DNA from: Escherichia coli
Lineage (GTDB): Bacteria; Pseudomonadota; Gammaproteobacteria; Enterobacterales; Enterobacteriaceae
Reading direction: 5' to 3' (one strand)
NCBI RefSeq assembly: GCF_003991155.1
Contig: NZ_CP031293.1
DNA: 64,000 bases
Shown here: positions 35,573-36,293 of the stretch, one piece after another
How positions within the stretch are numbered: the stretch's first letter is position 1
Layout: the number at the start of each line of letters is the position of its first letter
Notes under the pieces: generated by a model
What the model was told of the DNA's origin: nothing
Database searches by the model: none
Seen by the model: the letters and a program-made list of their open reading frames with translations, nothing else
Program-made: the position numbers and the translations under genes

Positions 35573-35602
35573 GTTAAAAGGGGAATTAAATTCCCCTTTT
35601 TT
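35573..35602 (+). terminator. rraA intrinsic terminator (ggggaattaaattcccc + T-run)
   Basis: Palindrome ggggaattaaattcccc followed by tttttt directly downstream of the rraA stop. Confidence 0.7.
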
Positions 35603-35606
35603 ATAC

Positions 35607-36293
35607 ATGGACGTATTCATGCAGAATATTATTCTTTTATTTATATATTTATTACTTATAGTCGTTAACCATTTCCGCTACAAATTCCTTTTGTCTGGCA
35701 ACACGGGTGAAATGATTTTATATTTTGCTAACGTATTTTTTAACCCACTTGCCTTATCATTTATTATCGCCGCAATCATCTGTATAACGATAAAAAAAAG
35801 AAGCAGCCACAGCTTTATTCGCGGCACTTGTTGGTTAATGGGATTATTTCTTATCTATAGCAGCTATACAGTGTGGGAACGACACAGCACATGGGATTAT
35901 ACTTTCCCGGGGCCAGGTATCACCGTCACAGTTCCGAGCAAACAGTGGGTTGCCAATATAGTAAAACAAGGACCAATCCTGGTGACTCGGGATGCCCATG
36001 CTATTTTAGTTATTGTTGCCTTCTCACAAAATGAACTCGGTGTGCATTCAATCGAGGAACTTACCGCGACTCAAAACGGAACTGCACAAATGCATGTTTG
36101 TGATGTTAAGGGATTTGCCTGCGCTTATCAGGAAGGAATTCAAACAATGAGTGATGGCAAAATAAGACATGCTATTTTCATGACTCTACTGGATAACACT
36201 AATTTGATACGACTGGTCGCAGCTATCGACCCAGATTATTTGGACGAATATCAAGAAGAAGTAATGAAAATGATACTTTCTGCCCATCAATAA
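35607..36293 (+). CDS. Hypothetical 3-TM membrane protein, islet paralog A
   Basis: 228 aa AT-rich ORF; three N-terminal hydrophobic helices then a soluble domain; shares motif blocks with the downstream paralog (LLSGxxG, IKK, RGxCWxxG, WxYTF, ITVTxP, MxSA); the start may be the internal ATG at 35619. Confidence 0.6.
   Translation: MDVFMQNIILLFIYLLLIVVNHFRYKFLLSGNTGEMILYFANVFFNPLALSFIIAAIICITIKKRSSHSFIRGTCWLMGLFLIYSSYTVWERHSTWDYTFPGPGITVTVPSKQWVANIVKQGPILVTRDAHAILVIVAFSQNELGVHSIEELTATQNGTAQMHVCDVKGFACAYQEGIQTMSDGKIRHAIFMTLLDNTNLIRLVAAIDPDYLDEYQEEVMKMILSAHQ

Follow-up and report, generated by a model that had tools for sequence, protein, structure and literature searches.

The 12-nucleotide motif ATACATGGACGT occurs twice in a 64,000-nucleotide stretch of Escherichia coli DNA (contig NZ_CP031293.1; here called the window), each time just behind a terminator and just ahead of a gene. 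Both copies are probably CsrA-type Shine-Dalgarno sites carried on terminator read-through RNA, that is, cases of ordinary translational control and not a repeat, a promoter, or an insertion scar. One copy precedes yiiX and the other precedes ORF A, the first of two genes in an islet between rraA and zapB; the gene region of the window is that of E. coli metJ-yiiX...hslVU-menA-rraA-zapB-glpF.

Two copies of the motif behind two terminators

At the first site, a run of six T's (35597-35602) is followed by ATACATGGACGT at 35603-35614, the letters ATTC, and an ATG at 35619. At the second, six T's (26485-26490) and a single C (26491) precede ATACATGGACGT at 26492-26503, which is followed by TTAACG and an ATG at 26510. 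The preliminary description had claimed a near-identical motif after two terminators, and the positions of both copies are borne out by the sequence. Copy 1 (AUACAUGGACGU, plus strand, GGA at 35609-35611) adjoins the 3' side of the rraA hairpin, and copy 2 (AUACAUGGACGU, plus strand, GGA at 26498-26500) adjoins the 3' side of the metJ hairpin, so that a hairpin and a U-tract precede both copies (folds of -21.6 and about -21 kcal/mol). No third copy of ATACATGGACGT was found in the window with one mismatch allowed, and TTTTNATACATGGACGT is confined to the same two places. With three mismatches allowed, the window search returned 33 matches, below the shuffle mean of 44.

The resemblance had also been described as unlikely by chance, which holds for one way of counting and fails for another. 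Taken alone, a shared stretch of 12 nt is nothing unusual: maximal exact direct repeats of at least 12 nt number 282 in the window, some of them 15 to 17 nt long between unrelated coding regions, and identity of this length therefore carries little weight on its own. Among the 86 runs of six or more T's on both strands, only sites 1 and 2 agree over more than 9 nt in the sequence that immediately follows, an event to which we assign a chance of about 1e-3 for a class that was picked post hoc. We regard the near-identity of the two sites as real and, to a modest degree, unlikely by chance. Searching the literature for the 12-mer turned up nothing.

The first copy lies downstream of rraA (35074-35559, plus strand), which is placed from the RefSeq annotation of an identical strain: positions 35000-37800 of the window (rraA-glpF) are 100% identical to E. 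coli strain 2016C-3878. The hairpin that terminates rraA in the islet allele (AAAAGGGGAAUUAAAUUCCCC plus U6; 35576-35602, plus strand) was located by promoter/terminator scan and fold, and its stem covaries among relatives (GGGGAA/UUCCCC versus GGGAAA/UUUCCC). The whole rraA-zapB interval (about 35560-37080) is an alternative allele to which both hairpin and motif belong; K-12-like strains have another rraA terminator and an 84-nt spacer at this position. The extra genes ORF A and ORF B are present in 658 of 5,426 complete E. coli genomes (about 12%), including O157:H7. ORF A (35619-36293, plus strand) encodes 224 amino acids with N-terminal hydrophobic segments, and ORF B (36326-37042, plus strand) is its paralogue by protein comparison (29% identity). 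No Pfam domain was found in the family, which is tiny (17 clusters in protein searches). The motif's own ATG at 35607 had been taken as the first ATG of ORF A. Annotation and homology instead place the start at the second ATG, 35619, where PGAP starts the gene and from which the alignment with ORF B begins.

E. albertii (L069), Superficieibacter (L035), and two further enterobacterial lineages, L068 and L077, share the gene order rraA-ORF A-ORF B, with protein identities to E. coli of 31 to 33% in Superficieibacter, 51% in L068, and about 26% in L077; ORF A is decayed in L079/L080. Because this synteny, motif included, spans several genera, the islet looks like an old locus that most E. coli have lost, and not like something inserted recently next to a hotspot.

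The second copy follows a terminator-like metJ hairpin with an A-tract and a U-tract (26455-26491, plus strand, with the U-tract at 26485-26490; fold -21.6 kcal/mol, z -3.6), the loop of which carries a GGA at 26469-26471. Downstream lies yiiX (26510-27118, plus strand; RefSeq annotation), which encodes a permuted papain-like enzyme of the Peptidase_C92 family (Pfam PF05708, E 1e-48). The motif is found in both E. coli metJ-yiiX alleles, namely the short one (this window, ST131) and that of K-12, in which a BIME of ~130 nt sits inside the metJ terminator loop, and it is also found at the yiiX site of Escherichia sp. E1V33 and E. whittamii. A literature search on "yiiX" returned nothing on yiiX transcription.

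The motif forms the Shine-Dalgarno region of both genes

Between the motif and the start codon lie 4 nt at ORF A (35619) and 6 nt at yiiX (26510), within the 4 to 9 nt typical of Shine-Dalgarno sequences. Its AUGGACGU matches AAGGAGGU at 6 of 8 positions in a manual check of complementarity to the 16S 3' end, and relatives carry AAGGAUGU, AAGGACGU or ACGGAGGU at the equal position, as expected of a Shine-Dalgarno sequence. Judged by position and complementarity, each copy serves the first gene behind a terminator as its Shine-Dalgarno region.

At the orthologous yiiX position, six other genera read AACAAGGAYGU or ACACGGAGGU. The leaders are AACAAGGACGUUUACCGAUG in C. enshiensis, AACACGGAGGUUGUGCCAUG in Pseudocitrobacter, AUAACAAGGAUGUUAUGCCAUG in K. 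spallanzanii, AACAAGGAUGUAAAUCAUG in Phytobacter, AACAAGGAUUGUUGCACCAUG in C. freundii, and GCAAGGACGUUGACGUG in K. aerogenes; yiiX leaders in four of the six other genera match ACANGGANGU, and the remaining two depart from it by one mismatch or one inserted base. ORF A leaders, read directly after a U-tract of six to seven residues, are AUACAUGGACGUAU in Escherichia and Superficieibacter, AUACAAGGAUGUAU in L068, AUACACGGAUGUAU in L077, and AUACAUUAAUGUAU in L079/L080, where ORF A is decayed. The string AUACA[U/A/C]GGA[C/U]GUAU is kept in ORF A leaders of five lineages whose proteins are 26 to 51% identical to that of E. coli. In these leaders the ACA before and the GU(AU) after the GGA are invariant, and what varies is the two N positions that flank the GGA; relatives in other genera show the same pattern, with ACA, GGA, and GU retained and differences at the two N's. 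The GGA is lost only in the lineage with a decayed ORF A (L079/L080).

It is on these flanks that a simpler account loses ground. Both copies could be plain weak Shine-Dalgarno sequences (AUGGACGU against AAGGAGGU) that follow terminators and share 12 nt by chance, with no role for CsrA. The position of the motif and the AAGGA found in relatives fit such an account, as does the abundance of exact repeats of this length in the window, yet a Shine-Dalgarno sequence needs neither the ACA nor the GU(AU) that ORF A leaders hold invariant across such divergent proteins, and the class-specific chance of ~1e-3 also speaks against it. Shine-Dalgarno sequences and CsrA sites overlap by nature, and some conservation is therefore expected from Shine-Dalgarno function alone. 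We return to this account with the crosslinking data.

The preliminary description also pointed to a short reading frame before yiiX, ATG GAC GTT TAA (M-D-V-stop; 26496-26507, plus strand), and this frame is confirmed. If it mattered, termination at M-D-V, 2 nt before the yiiX AUG, would allow re-initiation on yiiX, and the inner AUG would be the true start of ORF A. The frames do read as described, and M-D-V is found in the ORF A extensions of both E. coli and Superficieibacter. What tells against coupling is that AAG or ACG stands in place of the inner AUG in L068, L077, and every non-Escherichia yiiX leader (five other genera), the AUG being missing at yiiX in Citrobacter, Klebsiella, Pseudocitrobacter, and Phytobacter. 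Moreover, the second Met is the start both in ORF B and in the PGAP annotation, and upstream of the inner AUG there is only the U-tract and no Shine-Dalgarno sequence. We consider coupling through the mini-ORF very improbable. Since the inner ATG is not conserved, neither the M-D-V mini-ORF nor the upstream start of ORF A counts as a conserved feature; on comparison of the leaders, the inner ATG and the mini-ORF are lineage-specific by-products, at yiiX through an Escherichia-specific AAGGA-to-AUGGA variant.

Returning to the Shine-Dalgarno regions themselves, the 5' flank directly after the rraA stop codon (35560-35575, plus strand) is complementary to the ORF A initiation region in the full-spacer fold and is a possible anti-Shine-Dalgarno strand. 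The pairing in E. coli is AUGCGUU/GACGUAU plus CUGC/GCAG, or CCAUG/CAUGG; in L068 it is ACAUCCUGUA/UACAAGGAUGU (whole spacer -30.5 kcal/mol, z -7.3), and in L077/L079 it is CGCAUAU/AUAUGCG, spanning the start codon. Compared with shuffles, the flank duplex energy has p values of 0.06 in E. coli, 0.009 in E. albertii, 0.005 in L068, 0.15 in Superficieibacter (L035), 0.011 in L077, and 0.007 in L079. The partners and register of this outer helix across the rraA terminator shift by lineage, giving no single consensus structure, and no comparable outer helix was found at yiiX. The pairings hint that the flank may be an anti-Shine-Dalgarno strand that could be opened by a ribosome terminating on rraA or stabilized by CsrA as for psl, for which a CsrA-stabilized structure has been described (PMC7652899).

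Fit to the CsrA/RsmA consensus

The SELEX consensus for CsrA is RUACARGGAUGU, in which ACA and GGA are 100% conserved and GU is present in all ligands but one; most ligands form a stem of at most 4 bp with a 6-nt loop and with AC pairing to GU (PMC7652899; PMC5694010). The structure of the RsmE-hcnA RNA complex gave the consensus A/UCANGGANGU/A (PMC5864733). Both copies of the motif read AU-ACA-U-GGA-C-GU, which matches the structural consensus in full and the SELEX consensus at 10 of 12 positions, the two mismatches being U for R and C for U; the L068 ORF A leader matches SELEX at all 12. The motif thus has the GGA core, the ACA and GU flanks, and the location in a 5' leader, over the Shine-Dalgarno sequence, that mark CsrA/RsmA sites.

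Structural support varies among lineages. At ORF A, a 4-bp stem of AUAC with GUAU can present the 6-nt loop AUGGAC, and this hairpin is predicted in L035, L068, and L077. In E. coli the local hairpin is weak at both sites (4 bp for ORF A, AC/GU alone for yiiX), and minimum-energy folds choose other pairings; hairpins with the GGA in the loop are predicted in several relatives, e.g., K. spallanzanii (-10.5 kcal/mol, z -5.6). A second GGA 10 to 63 nt away helps CsrA to bridge two sites and is not obligatory, hfq being regulated from a single site (PMC7652899). In the short yiiX allele such a second GGA lies in the terminator loop (26469-26471), 29 nt upstream; the BIME of K-12 shifts it to about 160 nt from the yiiX motif. 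At ORF A the nearest second GGA (35582-35584) is buried in the terminator stem.

The preliminary description had offered a shared leader element among several options. That option survives as a translation-initiation (Shine-Dalgarno) region of the CsrA-binding type; the others it listed do not.

CsrA crosslinking at the yiiX copy in K-12

Potts et al. (2017) mapped CsrA by CLIP-seq in K-12 and reported 457 peaks (PMC5694010). One of these in the published table, peak_403 (yiiX/metJ), covers 4127842-4128117 on the minus strand (logFC 2.11, padj 2.16e-16). Its maximum, at peakStart+53 (4127895), is nt -1 relative to the yiiX AUG (4127894), and the GGA of the motif (-12 to -10) is the sole GGA within 50 nt of that maximum. 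The peak is 276 nt wide and includes further GGAs, located in the BIME and at the 3' end of metJ. Physical binding of CsrA is thus documented by published in vivo CLIP-seq at the yiiX copy, in K-12, a strain from which the ORF A copy is absent; binding at ORF A is a prediction from the shared sequence.

The other occurrences of the same pattern in the window allow a comparison. ACANGGANGT occurs four times, and all three sites that exist in K-12 fall in CLIP peaks: the yiiX site in peak_403 and two control sites on the plus strand that match ACANGGANGU, AAACAUGGAUGU in the cytR 5' leader (29904-29915; K-12 peak_402) and AGACAAGGAGGU in the fpr 3' UTR (42260-42271; K-12 peak_400). By a rough estimate, CLIP peaks cover less than 1% of the transcriptome. 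The looser pattern WCANGGANGW has 10 matches in the window against 6 expected, and none of the five extra matches existing in K-12 (UCA... or ...GA, in coding regions) falls in a CLIP peak, so the pattern alone is insufficient for binding.

Both the maximum at the yiiX start and the three-for-three agreement of ACANGGANGT sites tell against plain weak Shine-Dalgarno sequences as the whole explanation. In favor of that explanation is the behavior of yiiX in a csrA mutant, which is published as "NS" (RPF +0.15, TE logFC +0.38, RNA -0.46, half-life 1.8 versus 1.4 min; PMC5694010) under one condition, LB at mid-exponential phase, for an mRNA that is short-lived. This null result lowers the claim that yiiX is regulated by CsrA and not the claim that CsrA binds there. 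Taking the flanks, the crosslinking, and the mutant data together, we judge it unlikely that the two copies are plain Shine-Dalgarno sequences without a role for CsrA.

The peak also bears on transcription. The RNA in peak_403 continues without a break from the 3' end of metJ across the BIME into yiiX, from which it follows that read-through transcripts exist. This is one of several observations against a shared promoter of yiiX and ORF A, as had been proposed, or a shared transcription factor site. The ATAC-N6-GTAT at site 1 does form a small inverted repeat, but the repeat is imperfect at yiiX. Promoter scans found no sigma-70-like hexamer pair (-35/-10, 16- to 18-nt spacing) overlapping either motif; a -35 element would have to lie within the terminator stems, and U-tract and Shine-Dalgarno sequence are too close together to accommodate a promoter. 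A shared promoter or factor site is, in our view, so improbable as to be nearly negligible. In manual checks, a MetJ box (AGACGTCT) was rejected at 6 of 8 matches for one box with no tandem partner, as was a sigma-54 -24/-12 site, the spacing of which is off by one. A whole-window Rfam scan at gathering threshold gave no match at either site.

A model for the two sites

CsrA-type recognition on read-through RNA could account for the resemblance as follows. Transcripts reading through the metJ or rraA terminator would carry the motif, in which the ACA and GU flanks may pair and present N-GGA-N in a loop, as in the sequence of a high-affinity CsrA site. A CsrA dimer bound to the GGA that overlaps the Shine-Dalgarno sequence would block 30S binding, and at yiiX it may bridge to the second GGA ~29 nt upstream in the metJ hairpin loop. 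CsrA would in this way repress translation of yiiX and ORF A, which would be translated only when CsrB/CsrC titrate CsrA.

Under this model, the identity of the two copies at 12 of 12 positions would reflect convergence on the consensus of one protein without common descent. The motif enriched at CsrA sites in vivo is AuGGAug in a short stem-loop (PMC5694010), and U at the first N is for that reason a common choice. With 10 of 12 positions set by the consensus and this U favored in vivo, free coincidence (about 1 in 4) would be needed for nothing but the C at the second N. The T-run common to both sites would be the U-tracts of the terminators.

A more far-reaching proposal is that a terminator U-tract and an abutting CsrA-type site form a functional module, and that their tight spacing is no accident. 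Five ORF A lineages retain the abutment; at yiiX it is a shortening specific to Escherichia, other genera having 8 to 12 nt between U-tract and motif. We hold this proposal to be improbable. Were it true, genes or sponge-like GGA arrays directly behind intrinsic terminators would be expressed only on read-through RNA, with CsrA deciding their fate and with ribosome-dependent unmasking as a further layer, contributed by the anti-Shine-Dalgarno strand that follows the rraA stop codon. The marine arrays described below would then be a new kind of CsrA/RsmA-titrating sequence, located in read-through 3' regions and not in dedicated sRNA genes.

Occurrence across species and the marine arrays

The genome-wide motif search suggested in the preliminary description was run as a scan for TTTTNATACATGGACGT in one genome per species (100,044 species). 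Three of the 61 matches are enterobacterial, two at yiiX and one at ORF A of Superficieibacter. No multicopy enterobacterial family emerged.

About 10 matches come from marine gammaproteobacteria (Marinobacterium, Thalassotalea, Shewanella, Algicola, and Thalassomonas), where the motif opens 52-nt tandem or composite repeats (T-run plus ATACATGGACGTATTTATCC) directly after unrelated terminators, an abutment that is partly forced by the T-run in the query. The marine units, e.g., TTTATACATGGACGTATTTATCCTGCGATCACATGGAGGTGAATGAGTAGGG, are strings of ACANGGANGU-type sites, with 10 such sites in about 290 nt on one strand in L009, 5 in L031, and 4 in L061. They lie between unrelated genes without a visible promoter of their own, and no Rfam family matched them; L026 has a sub-threshold ncS54 match upstream of the motif.

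These arrays suggested that the motif might be what a repeated or mobile element leaves behind, or aims at, when it inserts just after terminators, as in the insertion hotspot raised earlier: roughly 10 of the 61 matches stand behind unrelated terminators, and the likeness to the ORF A site reaches 18 of 20 nt. That likeness stops after ~20 nt, however, and its T-run is forced by the query; for the rest, the marine units are ACANGGANGU strings, and shared CsrA/RsmA-type recognition explains the likeness. In E. coli, neither site has visible element ends, a transposase, or a target duplication, the species scan gave one match per Escherichia genome and no multicopy family in Enterobacteriaceae, and the ORF A/B islet is syntenic and old. 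We therefore rejected the mobile-element end that the marine arrays had prompted us to consider for E. coli, and the chance that the motif is a short repeat or insertion hotspot is, we think, very slim.

On this reading, what looked like a repeat is a well-understood regulatory site met twice. The analyses also offer a testable reason for an unexplained CsrA CLIP-seq peak at metJ-yiiX; that copy is already in a public CLIP-seq table, where it is not discussed. Through its ORF A copy, the accessory two-gene islet is newly predicted to belong to the Csr regulon, which would be a first handle on when its genes are expressed. The understanding of CsrA, or of terminators, is unchanged by the finding.

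Comparison with known systems

REP/BIME extragenic repeats resemble the motif in being short conserved sequences just behind gene ends. They differ from it in that the motif has two copies only, has no palindromic REP structure, and is not multicopy in enterobacterial genomes; the BIME at K-12 metJ-yiiX is a separate insertion upstream of the motif. The marine arrays, for their part, share with the sponge RNAs CsrB/CsrC/RsmZ a dense tandem arrangement of GGA-hairpin units on one strand, but they begin at another gene's terminator, with no visible promoter of their own and no Rfam match.

Gene junctions offer another comparison. Stop codon and next gene are spanned by 78 CLIP peaks, as in the discordant operon expression of the nhaA-nhaR type (PMC5694010). 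Peak_403 likewise spans the metJ stop and the yiiX start, and translation of the downstream gene would likewise be set independently; the difference is the terminator hairpin that separates the genes at both motif sites.

The closest likeness is to CsrA/RsmA sites that overlap a Shine-Dalgarno sequence (glgC, hfq, and hcnA-RsmE). The motif differs from these at two consensus positions (U for R and C for U) and in abutting a terminator U-tract, so that it is present only on read-through RNA; in addition, yiiX has no detected csrA-dependent change, and the ORF A copy is a predicted site only. What they have in common is the ACA, GGA, and GU elements, a possible 6-nt loop with AC:GU pairing, the overlap with a Shine-Dalgarno sequence 4 to 6 nt before the AUG and, at the yiiX copy, crosslinking in vivo; as in glgC, yiiX in its short allele has a second GGA in a hairpin loop, 29 nt upstream. 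A parallel within the same data set is yigG peak_386 (CAUACAAGGAUGUAAAAUUUAUG; Potts et al. 2017), which belongs to another gene, with no preceding terminator in the peak sequence shown, and which has AUACA-N-GGA-N-GU directly upstream of its start codon, the same sequence as in the L068 ORF A leader.

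The rraA-zapB islet

The islet between rraA and zapB (35560-37080 in the window) encodes two paralogues, ORF A and ORF B, neither of which has a Pfam domain. It was found in 658 of 5,426 E. coli genomes. Its synteny is kept in E. albertii, Superficieibacter and two other enterobacterial lineages, and because of this conservation the islet looks ancestral and lost from most E. coli, a reading that disfavors recent insertion. In one further lineage the islet has decayed. In one of the islet-bearing enterobacterial lineages (L068, 4761-5072), a Y1 transposase gene (PF01797, IS200/RAYT-like) lies between ORF B and zapB.

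RefSeq/PGAP places the start of ORF B at 36416, giving a protein of 208 amino acids. Homologues and the paralogue ORF A align with ORF B from the Met at 36326, so the annotation probably misses the first 30 codons (36326-36415). Read from 36326, ORF B has 238 amino acids, a hydrophobic N terminus included.

Flanks of the islet and the metJ terminator

Directly 3' of the rraA stop codon, 35560-35575 is complementary to the Shine-Dalgarno and start region of ORF A (35603-35625), and the partners of this pairing vary lineage by lineage. The arrangement suggests a helix around the rraA terminator hairpin, with an anti-Shine-Dalgarno or translational-coupling role. At the other end of the islet, the stretch 37048-37095 holds a minus-strand terminator-like hairpin (37067-37048) and, after it, the inverted repeat catggaagag/ctcttccatg, in which the downstream sequence pairs with the final zapB codons. 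The K-12 sequence differs over this stretch, and its final zapB codons carry synonymous changes.

The metJ terminator also exists in different alleles. In K-12 (L065, 690-815), a ~130-nt BIME of two REP units sits within the terminator hairpin loop, whereas the window (26455-26491) and ST131 have the short allele. The short-allele query aligned over at least 80% of its length in 3,314 of the 5,425 genomes with a match.

CsrA-type sites and repeat arrays

Besides the motif copies, the CsrA/RsmA-type core pattern ACANGGANGU occurs in the cytR leader (29904-29915) and the fpr 3' UTR (42260-42271), sites that fall on CsrA CLIP-seq peaks reported for K-12 (402 and 400, respectively). Rfam matches elsewhere in the window lie at 52289-52366, 62490-62652, 32062-32119, 27398-27450 and 47244-47285; the families are naRNA4 (REP-derived; three times), the ClpQY (hslVU) promoter element, the L31 ribosomal leader (upstream of rpmE) and ES036.

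In marine gammaproteobacteria, an intergenic family of 52-nt repeats, tandem or composite, starts immediately 3' of unrelated terminators (L009, 8095-8369; L031, 4478-4600; further cases in L004, L015, L026, L027, L061 and L008). Just upstream of one Marinobacterium array (L026), a minus-strand, slightly sub-threshold Rfam match to the Burkholderia sRNA ncS54 (5143-5205; 42.7 bits against a gathering score of 43 bits) is probably terminator-driven. Rfam gave no hit for the arrays themselves, nor is a separate promoter visible. Their units are runs of ACANGGANGU sites, with 10 in ~290 nt on a single strand in Thalassotalea (L009). The arrays might serve to titrate CsrA, or they might be a repeat of the REP-like kind.
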